Below, piece after piece: positions 1,953-54,303 of a stretch of DNA of 64,000 nucleotides (position 1 is its first letter; each line of letters opens with the position of its first letter). A program made the position numbers and the translations under genes. The notes under the pieces were generated by a model. The model was not told where the DNA came from. It was given only the letters and a program-made list of their open reading frames with translations, and made no database searches. This DNA comes from Firmicutes bacterium UBA2203. GTDB lineage: Bacteria; Bacillota; Desulfotomaculia; Desulfotomaculales; Nap2-2B. The stretch is taken from contig DCUX01000046.1 in NCBI GenBank assembly GCA_002327235.1, forward strand, positions 4,032 through 68,031, read 5' to 3'.

Positions 1953-2028
1953 TAACTAGCGGCTATAATAAACATAGTCAGGGCGAATAACATTATTTAG
2001 AAAAAATCACACATTTTTAGAAAAAAGC

Positions 2029-2057
2029 TTGACATTGTCCGTTCTCGCCTATATAAT
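2029..2057 (+). promoter_or_regulatory. Consensus sigma-A-type promoter (TTGACA-17 nt-TATAAT)
   Basis: TTGACA at 2029-2034, 17-nt spacer, TATAAT at 2052-2057, immediately upstream of the riboswitch. Confidence 0.6.
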
Positions 2058-2060
2058 AAG

Positions 2061-2299
2061 GCAAAAATCGGTTTAAGTATCCCGGAACACGGTGTGAATC
2101 CGTGGCGGTCCCGCCGCTGTAACCGGTGAGGCTCTTTAATAATGGCCAATGGCCCAGTCACTGTCGGGGCACACCCCGGCGGGAAGGCAGTAAAGAGCTT
2201 ATGAACCGGGAGCCAGAAGACCTACGAGAACCAAAACAACCCGGAATCTAATGGTAAAAGGTTCCGACTGACGCCTATAGTCTGTCGGAACCTTTTTTT
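2061..2299 (+). promoter_or_regulatory. Cobalamin (B12) riboswitch with intrinsic terminator expression platform
   Basis: Conserved blocks GGTGTGAATCC, CCCGCCGCTGTAA, GTCACTG (B12-box variant), GGGAAGGC and AGCCAGAAGACCT. Terminator AAAGGTTCCGAC...GTCGGAACCTTTTTTT at 2257-2299. Confidence 0.85.
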
Positions 2300-2356
2300 A
2301 TGGACAATATAAAAACGGGGGATGTTGAATAAATAATACAAGAAAGGAGAATAAAC

Positions 2357-2464
2357 ATGAAGGAAAAGAAAGTAAAAAAAGATGTGATCGCTTATCGCAA
2401 GAGCTGCAAGGCCAAGGGAACCGGCCTATCCCACTATATTCTAATGGACAGAAAAGCGAAGTAA
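2357..2464 (+). CDS. 35-aa Lys-rich peptide (MKEKKVKKDVIAYRKSCKAKGTGLSHYILMDRKAK), candidate RiPP precursor
   Basis: SD AAAGGAG lies about 7 nt upstream. The TAA stop overlaps the ATG of the downstream rSAM gene (TAATG). It sits between the riboswitch and the maturase. Below the ORF-track size cutoff. Confidence 0.55.
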   Translation: MKEKKVKKDVIAYRKSCKAKGTGLSHYILMDRKAK

Positions 2465-3885
2465 TGGTTGCCCCTAAAAACAACAACCTTACGGGTGCGG
2501 CGGCCCCTTCGCGGGGCCGCTTCGTAAACACAGGGAACGGTCCTGTATTTCAGGCTATTGATATCGGTCACGCCGAGTATGCAGCTGTAATCGATCCGAA
2601 TACGGCCTTCTGGTTTTTAGTAAAGAGCGAAAAACTTATTGACGCAATGCTTGGGGGTGATTTAACCAGGGTCTACGCCAAAAAGACTAAACAATTCGCC
2701 GGAGAGATGAATACCCTGCGGTTTGGGCTTACACCTTCGGCGGTCTATTTTAACCCCACCGAGCGGTGCAATATGAACTGTCCCTACTGTTATATTCCCG
2801 AAAATATGCGGCGTAACGGTGAGCACATGCCCGAAAAGAAACTGCTTTTAGCCCTCGAGAAGCTAAAAACATACTTTCACCTGAACCTGCCAAAGGATTC
2901 CACGCCTCAGATCGTCTTTCATGGGGCCGAGCCCTTGCTCAATCGTCAGGCAATCTTTGCGGGCATTAAGGAATATGGCAAGGACTTTCTATTTGGCCTC
3001 CAGACCAACGCCACGCTGTTGGACGATGAGGCCGTAGAGTTTCTGACGAGCCGCAATGTGAGCATCGGACTTTCGCTGGATGCTCCAACTGCTCAGGTTG
3101 CTGCCCGTACGCGCAAGAACTGGGATGGCCAGGGAACTTTCAAGCAGGTGGTTGCGGCCATGAAGCGGCTTAACGGCTATAAAGGCTGGAGCATTATCTG
3201 TACGGTTACCAGCGCAAACCTGCGTCACCTGACAAAGTTGGTGGATTTCTTTCATGAGAAGGAAGTGCCGACGTGCCTCATGAACATCATTCGCTGTACC
3301 CTTCCGTCATCGCGTAGCCTAAAACCCGGCGACGCAGAGGCCGCCAGATGTTTCCTGGCCGCCCTGGACAGAACTTACGAACTGTATCAGCAAACCGGCC
3401 GCAAATTACCGGTGGGTAACTTTGCCAACATCCTGCTTGCCATTATTGCGCCGGCTGCCCGCCGGCTGATGTGTGACATTTCTCCCTGTGGCGGCGGGCG
3501 TTGCTTCTTCGCTTTAGCTCCTAACGGTGATATATTCCCGTGCAGTGAATTTATCGGATTGGATCGCTTCCGGGCCGGAAATTTGTTTACGGACGAAATT
3601 TCCACCGTGCTCGAAACCGAGCCGTTCCGTCTGGTCACCGGCCGAAAGGTTGAAGATATCGAGCCGTGCCGGTGTTGCGCAATACGGCATTTCTGTGGCT
3701 CTCCCTGCCCGGCCGAAGCCTACGAAATGAACGGGGGTATAAATAAGACCGGAGCATTCTGTGAATTTTATGAGGAGCAAGTGCGATATGCTTTTCGCAT
3801 CATAGCCGACGGAAAGGTTGACGCCTACCTGTGGGACGATTGGGATAAAGGCATGAAGGACACCTTTAGCCTGAGTGGCAGCTAA
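2464..3885 (+). CDS. Radical SAM / SPASM-domain peptide-modifying enzyme
   Basis: 473 aa. CNMNCPYC (CX3CX2C) motif. C-terminal Cys clusters (CDISPCGGGRC...PCSEF; CRCCAIRHFCGSPCP...FCEF) are typical of SPASM. About 95 aa of N-terminal extension could be a peptide-recognition domain. Confidence 0.9.
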   Translation: MVAPKNNNLTGAAAPSRGRFVNTGNGPVFQAIDIGHAEYAAVIDPNTAFWFLVKSEKLIDAMLGGDLTRVYAKKTKQFAGEMNTLRFGLTPSAVYFNPTERCNMNCPYCYIPENMRRNGEHMPEKKLLLALEKLKTYFHLNLPKDSTPQIVFHGAEPLLNRQAIFAGIKEYGKDFLFGLQTNATLLDDEAVEFLTSRNVSIGLSLDAPTAQVAARTRKNWDGQGTFKQVVAAMKRLNGYKGWSIICTVTSANLRHLTKLVDFFHEKEVPTCLMNIIRCTLPSSRSLKPGDAEAARCFLAALDRTYELYQQTGRKLPVGNFANILLAIIAPAARRLMCDISPCGGGRCFFALAPNGDIFPCSEFIGLDRFRAGNLFTDEISTVLETEPFRLVTGRKVEDIEPCRCCAIRHFCGSPCPAEAYEMNGGINKTGAFCEFYEEQVRYAFRIIADGKVDAYLWDDWDKGMKDTFSLSGS

Positions 3886-4111: not shown

Positions 4112-5179
4112 ATGAGGTTTATTGATTCCGTGAATACTGTGGAAAATATAAAAGACGCCTATGATGTAGTTATAGTTGGCGCGGGGCCGGCGGGTCTTGA
4201 ATGCGCTAAAAATCTTGGTGGTTCTAATTTAGATGTTTTAATAGTCGAAAAAAACAAGGTCCCTGGTGAAAAAGTTTGCGCCGGCGGGGTTACTTTTAAT
4301 GACCTGGCGTATATTCCAAAGGAAATTTTAAACTTTCCCTTAAATAACTTGCACCTAAAATATAAGAAAACGAATGTTATCCTTTCGTCACCGGAAGGGC
4401 TTATTTCTTCGGTTGATAGAGTTAAGCTGGCTTGTTATCAAATAGACTACTTAAAAAAATTTAAAAATATTCAGCTCTTAACTGGGGTAAGAGTAACAAG
4501 AATAATATCAAATTTTCTTTTAGAATTAAGTCCTGGAAGACAAATTAAATTTAAATTTTTAGTTGGGGCAGATGGTTCTGTTTCTGTGGTAAGAAGGTAT
4601 TTAAGGTTACCGGCAAACAAATTAGGGATAACCTTTCAATATACACTTCATACCCTTCCCAAAAAGCTTGAATTATTTCAAGTATTTTTAGACGACAATC
4701 TTTTTGGGAGTGGTTATCTTTGGATTTTCCCCCACCAAGATTATACCCTGGTTGGTTGTGGAAGTGATCTAAAAATAATAAACCCTAAAATATTAAAATC
4801 TAACTTTAAAAAATGGCTTAGGCTACACAAATTTAATATATCGGAGGCTAAACTCAAATCAGCTTTTATAAACTATGATTACAGAGGCTATAAATTTGAT
4901 AATATTTTTTTAATTGGTGATAGTGCAGGTTTAGCCTCAGGAATAACCGGAAAGGGGATTTACCCTGCCTTCTTATCCGGCACTCAAGCGGCGAGGGATA
5001 TTATTCAGGAGCATCATTCGCAAAATCTTATTAAAGAGTGGTTAGAGAAAAAAGAAAAGCAAGAAAAATATATGTATTTTTTAAAGAATCCTGCTTTAAG
5101 GAAATTTTTTCTTTCATCAGGAATTAAGCTTCTTTCTAATAAAAAAATACAAAAAAAGGGGATCCAGGCTTTTACTTAA
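4112..5179 (+). CDS. FAD-dependent oxidoreductase, geranylgeranyl reductase-like family
   Basis: 355 aa. N-terminal VVIVGAGPAGLECA dinucleotide-binding motif and a GDSAG motif near the C-terminus. The gene is visibly AT-rich relative to its neighbours. Confidence 0.7.
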   Translation: MRFIDSVNTVENIKDAYDVVIVGAGPAGLECAKNLGGSNLDVLIVEKNKVPGEKVCAGGVTFNDLAYIPKEILNFPLNNLHLKYKKTNVILSSPEGLISSVDRVKLACYQIDYLKKFKNIQLLTGVRVTRIISNFLLELSPGRQIKFKFLVGADGSVSVVRRYLRLPANKLGITFQYTLHTLPKKLELFQVFLDDNLFGSGYLWIFPHQDYTLVGCGSDLKIINPKILKSNFKKWLRLHKFNISEAKLKSAFINYDYRGYKFDNIFLIGDSAGLASGITGKGIYPAFLSGTQAARDIIQEHHSQNLIKEWLEKKEKQEKYMYFLKNPALRKFFLSSGIKLLSNKKIQKKGIQAFT

Positions 5180-8200: not shown

Positions 8201-8917
8201 CTATTTTTTCCTTCCGATCTCTGACAGGAGATCAAGTTGTACCTCCTGGATTTGGGCAAGGCGATCCCACTGATGCGAAAGGAGATGGTCGATCTTATCA
8301 TGAAGATGCCGGATTTCAAGTTCCGCTTTCAAGTTCACCTGGTAATCATGCTGTGAGCGAAGTCGGTCCTTTGCCTCTTGTCGATTCTGGCTCATCATGA
8401 TTATCGGTGCCTGGATCGCCGCAAGGCAAGAGAGAATCAGATTCAAAAGGATGAAGGGATAGGGATCCGGAGGATGGACGACCAGTATAACTGAGTTAAT
8501 CCCGATCCACAAAGCAAGGAAAACGCCAAAGCATATAAGGAACGTCCAACTTCCACCAAATGTCGCGATTCGATCTGCTAATCTCTCACCAAAGGACCAC
8601 TTTTGATCGAACTCTTCGTCTACGTTCTTTGCGAGCAGTTCATGGTCCCGAATACTATGCAGAACTTCCTGCTCAAGGCTGGTAATCTCTCCTTTTTCAG
8701 ACTCAAGGAGGGTGTGTACATAGTTTGTTCGGTATCGCGTCAGGTCAGGTCGACAGATGAAACTTTCAGGCGACCAGTCAGAATGATCGCGGACTATTTC
8801 CGCTGAAATAACATCGCGTACGGCCGCGCCCGGAATAAGGTCTCGAAAAGAAAAATTCTTGCCGCAAACAGTACACAAATGCATGTCACTCTTCTTGTTC
8901 ATACTGACGCCTCTCAA
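8201..8917 (-). CDS. DUF1003 family membrane protein with N-terminal CxxC zinc-ribbon
   Basis: 238 aa. Shows ADRIA.FGGSW.F, two TM segments, PYPFILLNL.LS...AIQAPIIMMSQNRQ and a coiled C-terminus. Confidence 0.75.
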   Translation of the reverse strand: MRGVSMNKKSDMHLCTVCGKNFSFRDLIPGAAVRDVISAEIVRDHSDWSPESFICRPDLTRYRTNYVHTLLESEKGEITSLEQEVLHSIRDHELLAKNVDEEFDQKWSFGERLADRIATFGGSWTFLICFGVFLALWIGINSVILVVHPPDPYPFILLNLILSCLAAIQAPIIMMSQNRQEAKDRLRSQHDYQVNLKAELEIRHLHDKIDHLLSHQWDRLAQIQEVQLDLLSEIGRKK

Positions 8918-9090
8918 TAACGCTTAACAATAATTTTATTTCAATCTATAATTTCTTAAAATTTTACGCCTACAAGTGTTTCTTGTCAATCAAGATTTCA
9001 GGGATTTCAAGGATTATGTTTTTCTTTCAAGACAAAAAATAGTAGTGAACAAAACTAAATTTCCATGCTACAATTTTATTAAGAAATAAT

Positions 9091-29374: not shown

Positions 29375-30553
29375 TTGCCCTTTATTGAAGCGCAAAGGAT
29401 TAAGGATTTACCGCCTTATTTATTTGCCCGGATTGAACAATTAATTGCCCAAAAACAAAAAGAAGGGGTAGACATTATTAATTTGGGGATTGGTGACCCG
29501 GACCAGCCTACCCCGGAACATATTGTTCAAGCCTTAATTAATGAGGCTCAGAACCCGGTCAATCATCAGTACCCTACTTCAAGCGGCCTGTTGGCCTACC
29601 GCCAGGCGGTAGCCGACTGGTACGAAGACCGCTTTGGTGTTAAACTTAATCCCCAAACAGAAATTGTTTCTTTAATTGGCTCAAAGGAAGGAATAGCTCA
29701 TATATCCTGGTGCTATCTTGACCCGGGAGATGTTGTTTTAGTGCCTGACCCGGCTTATCCTGTTTATGCCGGAGGGGCTGTTTTAGCCGGGGCAGGGCCT
29801 TATTACCTTCCTTTAAAAGAGGAGCGGGGGTATCTGCCCGATCTAGCCGCGATACCTGTCGGGGTGGCTAAAAAAGCCAAGTTAATGTTTCTTAACTATC
29901 CCAACAACCCTACCGGAGCTGTAGCCCCAAGGTCTTTTTTTCAGGAAGTAGTTGTTTTTGCCCGGGAGTTTAACCTTTTAGTATGTCATGATGCTCCATA
30001 TACCGAAATAGCTTACGACGGCTACCGGCCTTTAAGTTTTTTAGAGATTCCTTACGCTAAAGAAATAGGCCTTGAATTTCATTCTTTATCCAAGACTTTT
30101 TGCATGACTGGTTGGCGTATTGGTTGGGCAGCCGGCAACGCGGCCGCAGTTGAGGCTTTAGGGAGGCTTAAAACAAATATTGACTCAGGTCAGTTTCAGG
30201 CCATTCAGTGCGCGGCTATAGCTGCTCTGAAGGGGACTGACCACGCAATCACCCAAGTAAACAAGCTCTACCAAGAGCGGCGGGATATTTTAGTGGACGG
30301 TTTTAACTCCCTGGGTTGGCGTTTAAAAAAACCTCTGGCTAGTATTTACGTTTGGGCTCGTGTACCGTCAGGACATACCTCCGAATCTTTTGCCGAATTG
30401 GTTTTAAACAAAGCCGGGGTAGTGGTTACTCCCGGTACTGGCTATGGGGCCTATGGCGAAGGTTATTTTCGCATGTCTTTAACGGTTAGCACAGAACGCC
30501 TTACAGAAGCAATAAGGCGAATTAAAGAGAATATTGGCCCGGTAAATTTTTAA
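29375..30553 (+). CDS. dapL: LL-diaminopimelate aminotransferase-like class I aminotransferase
   Basis: 392 aa. N-terminal ...[10 protein letters not shown]...[12 protein letters not shown] and the SLSKTF PLP-lysine motif. Adjacent to dapF. Confidence 0.7.
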
Positions 30554-51165: not shown

Positions 51166-52083
51166 ATGTTAAAACCTTCATTTGTCTTAATAGGGTGCGG
51201 TAAGGTAGGTAGTGCTCTAGCCTGTCTTTTGCAAGAAAAAAATTACCCGCTAGTTGGGGTAGCGAGTAAAAGCCTTGCTTCGGCTCAAAGATTAGCTGAA
51301 AAATTAAATTGTCAAGCCGCAAATAAACCAGAAAAAATAACCCCTCAAGCAGAGCTGGTTTTTATTACTACGCCTGACCGGGAGATTGCTCAGGTGGCCC
51401 AAAGGGTAGCTAAAAAAGGAGGTTTTCACCGAGGCCAAGTAGTTATTCATACCAGTGGTGTTTGTGAGGCCGGCGAATTACGTGGGGTACGGGAAGCAGG
51501 GGCCTTTGCCGCATCCATGCACCCAATTCAAGCGGTAGCTGATGTAGAAACAGCCCTTAAGAATTTACCGGGCTCTTATTTTGCCCTGGAAGGAGATACC
51601 GAGGCTTTACCGGTAGTAACCACCTTAGTTTCTGATTTAGGAGGACGTTTTTTCTTTATTCAGGCTAAAGATAAGCCTCTTTACCATACCGCGGCCTGCG
51701 TAATTTCAAACTATTTAGTGGGTTTGGCTCATTTTAGTACGGGATTATATCAAAGTTTTGGCTTGTCAAGAAAAGAGGCTTTTCAAGCCTTGTTACCTCT
51801 TATTCGGGGTACGCTTGATAACATTGAGCAAAATGGTCCTATCTTAGCTCTTACCGGGCCGGTAGATAGAGATGACGAAGAAACCATTAAAAGTCATTTA
51901 AATGCATTAACGCAAAAAGTGACCCAGGAGGAAATTAATCTATACTGTGCTCTTGGGCTATACATCATTTCTATTGCCCGGGAAAAGGGGAGTCTTAACG
52001 CTGAGCAGGCCGCAAGATTACAGACAATTTTTACTACAGGAAGAATTCAGCCGCGTATTTTAGAAAGGCTAAAAATCAAGTAG
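51166..52083 (+). CDS. Rossmann-fold / DUF2520-type protein, putative ketopantoate reductase-like first gene of the pan operon
   Basis: 305 aa. N-terminal IGCGKVGSALA dinucleotide-binding motif. The position upstream of panBCD suggests a role in pantoate synthesis (inference). Confidence 0.6.
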   Translation: MLKPSFVLIGCGKVGSALACLLQEKNYPLVGVASKSLASAQRLAEKLNCQAANKPEKITPQAELVFITTPDREIAQVAQRVAKKGGFHRGQVVIHTSGVCEAGELRGVREAGAFAASMHPIQAVADVETALKNLPGSYFALEGDTEALPVVTTLVSDLGGRFFFIQAKDKPLYHTAACVISNYLVGLAHFSTGLYQSFGLSRKEAFQALLPLIRGTLDNIEQNGPILALTGPVDRDDEETIKSHLNALTQKVTQEEINLYCALGLYIISIAREKGSLNAEQAARLQTIFTTGRIQPRILERLKIK

Positions 52084-52136: not shown

Positions 52137-52985
52137 TTGAATAAGCAAGTAACTACGGCCTACTTTAGGCAGGCTAAAAAAGAAGGCCAACCAATTACGA
52201 TGCTTACGGCCTATGATTACGCGATGGCCAGGCTTACAGACGCTGCCGGAATAGATGCTATTTTAGTCGGCGATTCCTTGGGTAATGTAATGCTGGGTTA
52301 TAATTCTACTATTCCGGTAACTATGGATGATATGATTCATCACCTTAAAGCAGTATGCCGGGGGGTAAACAGGGCCATGGTAGTTGGTGACTTGCCTTTT
52401 CTTTCTTATCACGGCTCTCTTGAGCAAAGCATAAAAAATGCCGGTCGTATCTTGCAAGAAGGCGGGGCCCAGGCCGTTAAATTAGAAGGGGGACAAGAAG
52501 TTGTACCGGTGATTCGGACCCTTACGGCAGCCGGGATTCCGGTTATGGGTCATTTGGGTCTTACCCCCCAGTCAATTTACCAGTTTGGCGGCTATAAGGT
52601 ACAAGGTAAAGAAGAAGCTGCCGCCAGAAAGCTTATTTATGATGCCCGTGCTCTTCAAGAGGCCGGGGTTTTTGCTTTGGTTTTAGAATGTATCCCGGCT
52701 GCGTTGGCCCGCTATTTGACTGAAAAATTAACTGTTCCTACCATTGGGATTGGGGCAGGGGTAGACTGCAATGGGCAGATTTTGGTAATTCATGATTTAC
52801 TTGGTATGCTTGAGGGACAAGCTCCCAAGTTTGTAAAACAATACGCTAAATTAAGGGAAGAAATTGTTCAGGCTATTCAAACTTACCGGGCAGAAGTACA
52901 AAATAGTATTTTTCCCGGTTCGGAACAAAGTTACACTATGGCTAAAGAAGTTATCGATAAGATAGTAACGGAAGAATTTCTTTAA
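52137..52985 (+). CDS. panB: 3-methyl-2-oxobutanoate hydroxymethyltransferase
   Basis: 282 aa. MLTAYDY, LVGDSLG and KLEGG motifs. Confidence 0.9.
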   Translation: MNKQVTTAYFRQAKKEGQPITMLTAYDYAMARLTDAAGIDAILVGDSLGNVMLGYNSTIPVTMDDMIHHLKAVCRGVNRAMVVGDLPFLSYHGSLEQSIKNAGRILQEGGAQAVKLEGGQEVVPVIRTLTAAGIPVMGHLGLTPQSIYQFGGYKVQGKEEAAARKLIYDARALQEAGVFALVLECIPAALARYLTEKLTVPTIGIGAGVDCNGQILVIHDLLGMLEGQAPKFVKQYAKLREEIVQAIQTYRAEVQNSIFPGSEQSYTMAKEVIDKIVTEEFL

Positions 52986-53050: not shown

Positions 53051-53926
53051 GTGTTAGTTTGCCATACAATTAACGAAATAAAATCTTTTATCCGTCAAGC
53101 CGCGTCTTTGGGAAAAACAATTGGTTTTGTTCCCACTATGGGTTATTTCCACGCCGGCCATTTAGCTTTAATGAGTGAAGCGAAAAAAACCTGTGGCGTG
53201 GTGGTATGCAGTATTTTTGTAAACCAACTCCAGTTTGGTCCGCAAGAAGATTTTGCCTGCTACCCCCGGGATATTGAGCGGGATAAAAGATTAGCTGAAG
53301 AAGTTGGAGTAGATGCTATATTTATTCCCTCGGCGGAAGAAATGTACCCCCCCCGTTTTTCTACCTTTGTGGAGACAAAAAAAATAACCGATTGTTTGTG
53401 TGGAAAGTCGCGGCCTGGTCATTTTCGGGGGGTAACTACGGTAGTAACCAAGCTTTTTAATATTATCCAACCTAATATGGCTTTTTTTGGTCAAAAGGAT
53501 TTTCAGCAAGCGGCTACTATTCAAAGAATGGTGGAAGACCTTAACATTGAGGTAAAAATAGTGCTTGTGCCTACCGTGCGGGATAAAGATGGCTTAGCGT
53601 TGAGTTCACGAAATATTTACCTTAAAGGCGCTCAAAGACAGGCCGCCTTAAACATCCCCCGTAGCCTGGCTTTGGCGGCCCAAGCAGTAGAAAATGGCGA
53701 AAGGGACCCGGCTAAAGTAAAAATGGCCGTTTGTAATAAGCTAACCGCCGAGCCTTTAGTAGAAATAGATTATGTAGAAATTTATTCCTTGCCCTATTTA
53801 GAGGAAATAAGTCTTTTGCAAGGAGAGGTTCTTTTAGCTATAGCCGCTAAAATTGGTAAGACCAGGCTAATTGATAATCTGGTTTTAAAAGTACCAGATA
53901 ATGGTCAATCATCCCCTAAGAGGTGA
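53051..53926 (+). CDS. panC: Pantoate-beta-alanine ligase
   Basis: 291 aa. VPTMGYFHAGHL and FGQKDFQQ motifs. Confidence 0.9.
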   Translation: MLVCHTINEIKSFIRQAASLGKTIGFVPTMGYFHAGHLALMSEAKKTCGVVVCSIFVNQLQFGPQEDFACYPRDIERDKRLAEEVGVDAIFIPSAEEMYPPRFSTFVETKKITDCLCGKSRPGHFRGVTTVVTKLFNIIQPNMAFFGQKDFQQAATIQRMVEDLNIEVKIVLVPTVRDKDGLALSSRNIYLKGAQRQAALNIPRSLALAAQAVENGERDPAKVKMAVCNKLTAEPLVEIDYVEIYSLPYLEEISLLQGEVLLAIAAKIGKTRLIDNLVLKVPDNGQSSPKR

Positions 53927-53931
53927 TTTAA

Positions 53932-54303
53932 TTGTTTTTAACCATGTTGAAATCTAAAATTCACCGGGCCACGGTAACAGAGGCAAACTTGAATTACACC
54001 GGTAGTATTACTATTGACCAGACTTTGCTTGAAGCAAGCAATATTCTGCCTCACGAGAAAGTACAGGTAGTCAACATTAATAATGGCGCGCGCTTTGAGA
54101 CTTATGTAATTACCGGTCCGCCAAATTCAGGAGTGGTTTGTTTAAATGGGGCCGCCGCTAGATTGGTGCAGCCCGGTGATATGATCATTATTATTTCTTA
54201 TATGCTGGTAACTGCAGAAGAGGCGCAAGCTATTAAGCCTACCATCGTGATGGTAAACGAACAAAATCAAATTACGGAAGTAGGCCGATCTGGCGAGAAG
54301 TGA
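53932..54303 (+). CDS. panD: Aspartate 1-decarboxylase
   Basis: [12 protein letters not shown] start and YTGSITID self-processing site. Confidence 0.9.

Follow-up and report, generated by a model that had tools for sequence, protein, structure and literature searches.

Of the natural corrinoid riboswitches that have been tested, all but one repress the genes behind them (PMC9600662, PMC10327014). The only one shown to activate is the cobT riboswitch of Alkalihalobacillus halodurans (Procknow et al. 2023, PMC10327014 / PMC10653944), for which cobinamide is the best ligand, inducing expression 8-fold (PMC10327014). Mutagenesis has shown how the two kinds work (PMC10327014). In a repressing corrinoid riboswitch the hairpin P13 and the terminator can both be present, and the antiterminator is a separate structure, which arises if P13 is undocked. 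In the A. halodurans riboswitch, P13 overlaps the terminator and antiterminates once the kissing loop between loops L5 and L13 has formed; its leader reads UGAGG-CAUGGCAUAC-CCUCA, and the CCUCA strand is reused by the terminator (PMC10327014). We have analyzed a cobalamin (corrinoid) riboswitch and the two genes that follow it, cbpA and cbpB, which code for a short peptide and a radical S-adenosylmethionine (SAM)/SPASM enzyme. This cassette is found at positions 2029-3885 of a stretch of 64,000 nucleotides (nt) from Firmicutes bacterium UBA2203 (assembly GCA_002327235.1, contig DCUX01000046.1, positions 4,032-68,031 of the forward strand), called here the window, whose numbering is used for all coordinates in it. 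The best overall explanation that we can offer, to which we give about an even chance of being correct, is a corrinoid-induced cassette that makes a modified peptide acting inside the cell in the completion of cobamides.

The leader of cbpA is like that of A. halodurans cobT in several respects. One strand is shared by P13 and the terminator, L13 is 10-11 nt long, contains AUGG(C/U)A and faces an L5 of sequence NCCCG, a spacer that could hold another antiterminator is lacking, and the regulated operon has cobT in some of the cbpAB lineages. On the other hand, the aptamer sequences are not closely related, and the regulated genes begin here with cbpA and cbpB.

For the enzyme, the best solved relatives are CteB, the SCIFF thioether maturase (PDB 5WGG/5WHY), and anSME, the anaerobic sulfatase maturase (PDB 4K36), with Foldseek expectation (E) values from 3e-16 to 2e-14. 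They have the radical SAM barrel and the SPASM region with two auxiliary clusters in common with CbpB, and CteB also has an N-terminal peptide-binding domain; however, the identity is merely 19-22%. The substrates differ as well, since that of CteB has six Cys and CbpA one, and the sulfatase motif of anSME is C-x-(P/A)-x-R whereas CbpA has C-x-A-x-G. The pairs PqqA/PqqE and MftA/MftC are similar in that a short and highly conserved peptide, with an invariant Tyr, is found beside a radical SAM/SPASM enzyme, and in serving primary metabolism rather than antibiotic production. Both need further proteins (PqqB/C/D/F or MftB/D/E/F) to excise a small molecule, unlike cbpAB, which has no such conserved partners, and PqqE is a weak fold match to CbpB (E 5e-6). 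Among cobamide genes, riboswitch-led operons for the lower ligand (bza) were reportedly described beside cobT by Hazra et al. in 2015. They have the same order of riboswitch, radical SAM gene(s) and cobT as the cbpAB loci of Syntrophales and Smithella, although BzaA, BzaB and BzaF are ThiC-like enzymes with aminoimidazole ribotide as substrate; they do not belong to the SPASM enzymes and lack a peptide partner.

Two competing structures in the cbpA leader

Scanning one genome per species, we found CbpB relatives in 397 species genomes of at least 10 phyla, and the 80 best of these were used for all the comparisons of loci that follow. The gene for CbpA was directly upstream of cbpB in 80 of the 80 loci and a riboswitch preceded cbpA in 73 (73 of 78 when counting the loci with enough upstream DNA). 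A first-pass annotation of the window, made from the sequence alone, had proposed a small peptide and a radical SAM/SPASM maturase led by a B12 riboswitch, and this arrangement is supported both in the window and in its homologous loci. The RF00174 match of the window (2028-2243, + strand) reached 79.1 bits for a gathering score of 31.5, and it is one of the two Rfam matches in the whole 64 kb. At its 5' end (2028-2048, which it assigns to the 5' strands of P1 and P2) the Rfam alignment falls within the promoter, upstream of the likely transcription start. The actual P1 is formed by 2070-2079 paired with 2223-2232, as indicated by the fold and by the leader alignment A2, and agrees with the family consensus GGUUUCAGCA/UGCUGAAACC. 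Where both strands could be located (61 leaders), the duplex mostly had between -8 and -20 kcal/mol. P1, loop L5 (UCCCG, 2109-2113) and the B12 box are all conserved in A2.

Two hairpins overlap after the aptamer. P13, named for a position and a loop such as P13/L13 would be expected to have, has a stem of 7 base pairs (2242-2248 with 2260-2266) and a conserved loop of 11 nt, L13 (2249-2259, UAAUGGUAAAA), with an invariant GG at 2253-2254; its energy in the window is -9.6 kcal/mol. Over the 55 leaders of alignment A4, 94% of the cells of this stem were paired, double-sided changes were seen in four of the seven pairs, and none of 500 shuffles reached the covariation score. The terminator pairs 2256-2272 with 2280-2296, and the U-run after it extends to 2299. 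It folds with -24.4 kcal/mol (z -7.3), which none of 200 shuffles equalled. In A4 it was also paired in 94% of the cells, with compensatory changes in 15 of 16 pairs, and none of 500 shuffles matched it. Of 73 leaders, 68 have a terminator after the aptamer, its sequence being conserved across phyla, and ahead of it there is a conserved segment of the form CCGGAAUC-YGAUGGYAAAG-GGUUCC. The 3' strand of P13 is at the same time the 5' strand of the terminator. Because columns 22-28 of A4 are common to both, the two hairpins are mutually exclusive, and column 26 covaries with column 6 as well as with column 58. P13 is the sole competitor of the terminator with covariation support. The leader after the aptamer can form two competing structures, each of them supported by covariation.

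We lean towards reading this leader as an ON switch, by which corrinoid would induce the expression of cbpA, because P13 shares a strand with the terminator in the layout of the activating A. halodurans riboswitch. P13 is much the weaker of the two hairpins (-9.6 against -24.4 kcal/mol), and therefore the default state would be termination unless P13 is stabilised. Specifically, without ligand the terminator would prevail and transcription would end before cbpA. Binding of a corrinoid would let the UCCCG of L5 kiss the GG of L13, stabilising P13 so that the terminator is blocked and cbpA-cbpB are switched on, together with a co-transcribed cobT in some lineages. The ligand is perhaps an incomplete corrinoid such as cobinamide, which is devoid of lower ligand; such a preference may hold at cbpA since it is cobinamide to which the A. 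halodurans riboswitch responds best. The first-pass annotation had the peptide made only when cobalamin is low. Given that P13 is the lone covarying alternative to the terminator and that the topology is the activating one of A. halodurans, this sign is probably reversed.

Some of the evidence weighs against induction. The prior is strongly in favour of repression, because all but one of the corrinoid riboswitches tested repress (PMC9600662, PMC10327014). Besides, the A. halodurans aptamer scored 13 bits against the profile of the cbpA leaders, and three repressing riboswitches scored 31-41, so a special kinship between the cbpA aptamer and that of A. halodurans is not supported by the profile scores. 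As to the kissing contact, the NCCCG of L5 is complementary to the GG of L13, with one variable pair (A:U 25, U:U 13, U:C 11, A:C 5, U:A 2); the kissing bases are themselves invariant, and covariation is for this reason unable to confirm the contact. A classical repressing switch would have the corrinoid favour the terminator, with CbpA and CbpB made in cobamide scarcity, for corrinoid or cobalt supply or for replacing a B12-dependent function. Apart from the prior, what speaks for it is that cob genes, including cobT, are normally repressed by B12, that cobT is found behind this very leader in the Syntrophales loci, and that in the window the B12-box region can pair with the 5' arm of the terminator at -17 to -20 kcal/mol. 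However, it is not conserved in the family, where the median for this antiterminator candidate was -9.1 kcal/mol against -9.7 for shuffled arms. The other candidate, in which the 3' strand of P1 pairs with the same terminator arm, was not significant either (median -6.2 against -5.8, Wilcoxon p = 0.10), and both were discarded. What is left is P13, the competitor that does covary, and in known riboswitches P13 is stabilised by the ligand. Being far weaker than the terminator when alone, P13 gives no visible basis for a read-through in the ligand-free state. Taking all of this into account we consider repression rather unlikely, and induction the somewhat more likely sign at cbpA.

In one of the loci (L067, 5361-5771) two cobalamin riboswitches are found back to back within a single intergenic region. 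The same situation appears in L025, L029, L031, L033, L036, L038, L056, L059, L066 and L069. We examined L067 by hand. In the riboswitch facing the cob genes the P13-like hairpin and the terminator are apart, as in the repressing layout, whereas in the one facing cbpAB they overlap. The two members of such a pair may be opposite in sign or differ in the ligands that they prefer.

The CbpA/CbpB family

Both proteins are above the cutoffs of curated families. CbpB reached 692.2 bits against TIGR04163 (rSAM_cobopep, cutoff 375), its residues 29-456 covering positions 1-428 of a profile of 428. CbpA reached 62.5 bits against TIGR04164 (cobo_pep, cutoff 35), with residues 10-34 covering positions 1-25 of 25. 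The cassette is therefore a full member of the CbpA/CbpB family, already catalogued and not new, and the family name that the first-pass annotation had suggested was the right one. We take the upstream cobalamin riboswitch to be the source of this name. The next-best enzyme families (PapB, DynA, anSME, QhpD and the SCIFF maturase) all stayed far under their own cutoffs, with 126.6 bits for PapB (cutoff 340), 114.8 for anSME (349) and 103 for the SCIFF maturase (425). Close homologues are already annotated publicly as "peptide-modifying radical SAM enzyme CbpB", and an identical protein is present in the metagenome-assembled genome GCA_002403265.1 and in several metagenomes. The family is defined by comparative genomics alone. 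Although it is named in the database and highly conserved over many phyla, we found nothing in the literature on its product, function or regulation, in agreement with the first-pass annotation, which knew of no determined product or function. New here are the distribution, the conservation of the peptide, the cob neighbours and the P13/terminator layout of the leader.

Across the 80 genomes the identity to the CbpB of the window was 64-95%. The closest relative is Desulfotomaculum sp. UBA9916 (locus L001), with 95% identity. Bacillota, Syntrophales/Smithella, Planctomycetota, Brocadiia, Verrucomicrobiota (including Methylacidiphilum) and Kiritimatiellia are represented, as well as Nitrospirota, Armatimonadota, Myxococcota, Chloroflexota and Thermoleophilia. 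Seven loci were left without a riboswitch call, two of them too short upstream. In the other five (L058, L060, L061, L062 and L070) no cobalamin riboswitch was found upstream of cbpA at the Rfam threshold. L062 has none of its own because cbpAB is there the end of a cobU-cobT-cobS-cobD/Q operon. L058, L060, L061 and L070 have ample upstream DNA and no upstream cob operon that could account for it.

The peptide is remarkably uniform. In 78 CbpA peptides (71 of them distinct) R14, C17, G21, G23, L24, S25, H26 and Y27 were invariant, and V10, I11, A12, T22, I28, L29 and M30 nearly so. Variation is confined to the Lys-rich N-terminus, and in the 26 residues of the C-terminal part hardly anything changes over at least 10 phyla. 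The entropy by codon position of cbpA was 0.44, 0.28 and 1.25, with diverse codons at the invariant residues. Since the variation sits at the third position, the conservation acts at the level of the protein, which indicates from the sequences that CbpA is translated and under strong selection. The C-x-A-x-G of CbpA was considered as a sulfatase-like motif and rejected, for the required Arg is replaced by the invariant Gly; it remains a mere lead.

CbpB matched the Pfam families PF04055 (Radical_SAM, 64.8 bits) and PF13186 (SPASM, 26.1 bits), and no cobalamin-binding domain was found in it by Pfam; the first-pass annotation had said that there was none at the N-terminus. All nine Cys of the SPASM region (C337, C342, C347, C360, C402, C405, C411, C415 and C433) were invariant in 78 homologues. 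Their spacing is C347-x7-G-x4-C360, C402-x2-C405-x5-C411-x3-C415 and C433, and in the alignment with anSME this region falls on the one that holds the auxiliary clusters. Nine Cys provide enough ligands, so that two fully ligated auxiliary [4Fe-4S] clusters are possible. The AlphaFold2 model obtained from the alignment of 78 sequences had a mean predicted local distance difference test (pLDDT) of 78.3 and a predicted template modelling score of 0.83. It supersedes an earlier model from 12 sequences, which was unusable (pLDDT 52.6). The best solved structures found by Foldseek were CteB (E 3e-16, with 465-470 aligned columns), anSME, TigE and ChlB. A profile search of the PDB sequences gave anSME (1.7e-26) and CteB (2.7e-25). 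Residues 29-90 were modelled as three strands and two helices, with a pLDDT of 83-92 over residues 31-80 and lower at the edges. The alignment to CteB reaches into this N-terminal domain, at the place where CteB has its peptide-recognition domain. We tentatively describe it from the model as similar to the recognition element (RRE) of ribosomally synthesised and post-translationally modified peptides (RiPPs), and as a candidate for peptide recognition.

According to the mechanism that we propose, the N-terminal domain of CbpB would bind the conserved VIAYRK segment of CbpA. The enzyme would then cleave SAM, and the resulting 5'-deoxyadenosyl radical would abstract a hydrogen within the region C17...G23-L-S-H-Y27. 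Judging from the nearest relatives of CbpB, the most likely product would be an intramolecular cross-link, for example a thioether from Cys17. The alternative is an oxidation of Cys17 to formylglycine.

Cobamide genes beside cbpAB and a possible role of the peptide

Clustering of the open reading frames (ORFs) of the 80 loci gave no universally conserved partner, and no recurrent protease, exporter, immunity or receptor gene. The sole recurrent functional theme beside cbpAB were the genes of the cobamide nucleotide loop. CobT (441 bits against TIGR03160) was found there, and CobS, CobU, CobC and a CobD-CobQ fusion recurred as well. At least one of these genes was within 6 kb in 18 of the 80 loci, in three arrangements. 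The riboswitch, cbpA, cbpB and cobT follow each other on one strand, as in an operon, in six loci of Syntrophales and Smithella. In one of them (L006) 33 nt separate cbpB from cobT, which has a Shine-Dalgarno sequence of its own, and no terminator or promoter was found on the same strand in L013 or L017. In ten loci of Planctomycetota type, a cobC-U-T-S-D/Q operon is divergent, on the opposite strand and behind a second riboswitch. Finally, L062 is colinear, with the order cobU-cobT-cobS-cobD/Q-cbpA-cbpB. In five loci (L007 at 8319-9041, L015, L021, L024 and L027, on the - strand) a conserved protein of about 240 amino acids (aa), without NCBIfam match, is convergent to cbpB.

From these neighbours we put forward, as a tentative role falling somewhat short of even odds, that the modified CbpA would stay in the cell and act at the final stage of the assembly or salvage of cobamides, that is, in the supply or attachment of the lower ligand together with CobT, CobU, CobS and CobC. 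The first-pass annotation had suggested acquisition of corrinoid or metal, or signalling. This is not favoured by the lack of a conserved exporter, protease or receptor among the loci and by the recurrence of cobT, cobS, cobU, cobC and cobD/Q, and the cassette is probably induced by corrinoid and linked to cobamide completion rather than induced by scarcity for acquisition or signalling. It weighs against such a role that cob genes accompany cbpAB in just the 18 loci mentioned, the window's own locus being without any. A further point against the explanation as a whole is that Pfam gave no PqqD/RRE match in the N-terminal domain of CbpB, which is why the label RRE-like is tentative.

The combination of a peptide with a radical SAM/SPASM enzyme, and the relatives PapB, DynA and CteB, are typical of RiPP pathways, and CbpA might then be a conventional secreted product (an antibiotic, a signal or a scavenger of cobalt or corrinoids) exported after removal of its leader. 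We find this improbable: among the 80 loci there was no recurrent protease, ABC exporter or immunity gene, CbpA has no recognisable motif for leader cleavage, and the cores of antibiotics diversify, whereas both the C-terminal part of CbpA and the CbpB sequence have hardly changed from phylum to phylum. CbpA could also be a small partner or regulator, with CbpB modifying a non-peptide such as a corrinoid, in the way AhbD and NirJ act on tetrapyrroles. There are indeed SPASM enzymes with tetrapyrrole substrates, AhbD being one (PMC10452713), and a corrinoid-sensing leader and cob neighbours would fit with such a substrate. Nevertheless, the best family and fold matches of CbpB all modify peptides or proteins, its N-terminal domain is placed like the peptide-recognition domain of CteB, and the overlap of the stop codon of cbpA with the start codon of cbpB fits with a substrate, as does the presence in CbpA of invariant Cys, His and Tyr, all of which leaves this explanation with a very small chance. 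In the most specific version of the cobamide role, which is speculative and in our opinion unlikely to hold in full, CbpA/CbpB would be a missing peptide-based step that supplies, carries or helps to attach the lower ligand or the nucleotide loop, possibly via a product of the invariant Ser-His-Tyr, and that is induced by incomplete corrinoids; its riboswitches would then be the first activating ones to form a widespread family, with hundreds of species in at least 10 phyla.

If the leader is activating, a single laboratory example, the cobT riboswitch of A. halodurans, would become a widespread natural class, with dozens of natural variants available for the design of biosensors. If CbpA acts with CobT, CobU, CobS and CobC, a step based on a ribosomal peptide would be added to the biosynthesis of vitamin B12. 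The prediction of lower-ligand structure from genomes fails for 42% of the predicted cobamide producers (PMC6461909), and a role of CbpA with the Cob enzymes, if true, could bear on this gap.

Layout of the cassette and its surroundings

The elements that the first-pass annotation had read in the sequence are all present at the positions collected in the table below: the consensus promoter, the B12 riboswitch leader with its strong terminator, the Shine-Dalgarno sequence and the short ORF overlapping the enzyme gene, the CNMNCPYC motif and the SPASM Cys.

Table. Features of the cbpA-cbpB cassette in the window
Feature	Position	Strand	Evidence
Sigma-70 type promoter TTGACA-17-TATAAT	2029..2057	+	12/12 consensus matches
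Cobalamin (corrinoid) riboswitch aptamer	2069..2233	+	RF00174 79.1 bits, E 8e-18
P13-like hairpin, predicted antiterminator	2242..2266	+	-9.6 kcal/mol and covariation across 55 leaders
Intrinsic terminator with U-run to 2299	2256..2299	+	-24.4 kcal/mol, z -7.3, covariation
Shine-Dalgarno AGGAG of cbpA	2345..2349	+	read from sequence
cbpA, 35-aa precursor peptide MKEKKVKKDVIAYRKSCKAKGTGLSHYILMDRKAK	2357..2464	+	TIGR04164 62.5 bits, cutoff 35
cbpB, 473-aa radical SAM/SPASM peptide-modifying enzyme	2464..3885	+	TIGR04163 692 bits, cutoff 375
CbpB N-terminal domain, residues 29-90, RRE-like candidate	2548..2733	+	AlphaFold2 model, Foldseek alignment to CteB
Radical SAM cluster motif C102-x3-C106-x2-C109 (CNMNCPYC)	2767..2790	+	read from sequence; invariant in 78 homologues
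SPASM region, nine Cys	3472..3762	+	PF13186 match

The transcript of cbpA-cbpB should start near 2064. Many related leaders likewise have AGGAG or GGAG ahead of cbpA. The TAA of cbpA (2462-2464) overlaps the ATG of cbpB (2464-2466) as TAATG, that is, the start is coupled.

The guanine-plus-cytosine (GC) content of the cassette is 0.50-0.54, and the adjoining DNA just downstream falls to 0.31-0.34. This contrast, together with the high identity across phyla, suggests that the cassette travels horizontally as one unit. Directly downstream there is a gene of the geranylgeranyl-reductase family (4112-5179, GC 0.31-0.34). Upstream there is a gene of the Uma2 family (1389-1952), and on the matching public contig also an excisionase-like gene with HTH_17 and a gene with a TubC_N domain. 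The GC contrast and these upstream genes are a hint that the cassette was acquired horizontally near a mobile region. In L001 a 3' fragment of a tRNA was found at the end of the contig (1-50), some 200 nt ahead of the riboswitch; ARAGORN detected no tRNA in the 64-kb window.

The neighbours in the window (Uma2, the geranylgeranyl-reductase-family protein and a 2-oxoacid:ferredoxin oxidoreductase) are unrelated to cobamides. A search of the 64 kb for homologues of cobT, cobS, cobU, cobC and cobD/Q found none, the lone weak match being an LL-diaminopimelate aminotransferase (29375-30553, + strand, 609 bits against TIGR03540). Farther along the window, a pan motif (RF01749, 50954-51051, + strand, 41.8 bits for a gathering score of 36.2) is located upstream of an unannotated ORF of 305 aa (51166-52083), which is followed by panB (52137-52985), panC (53051-53926) and panD (53932-54303).

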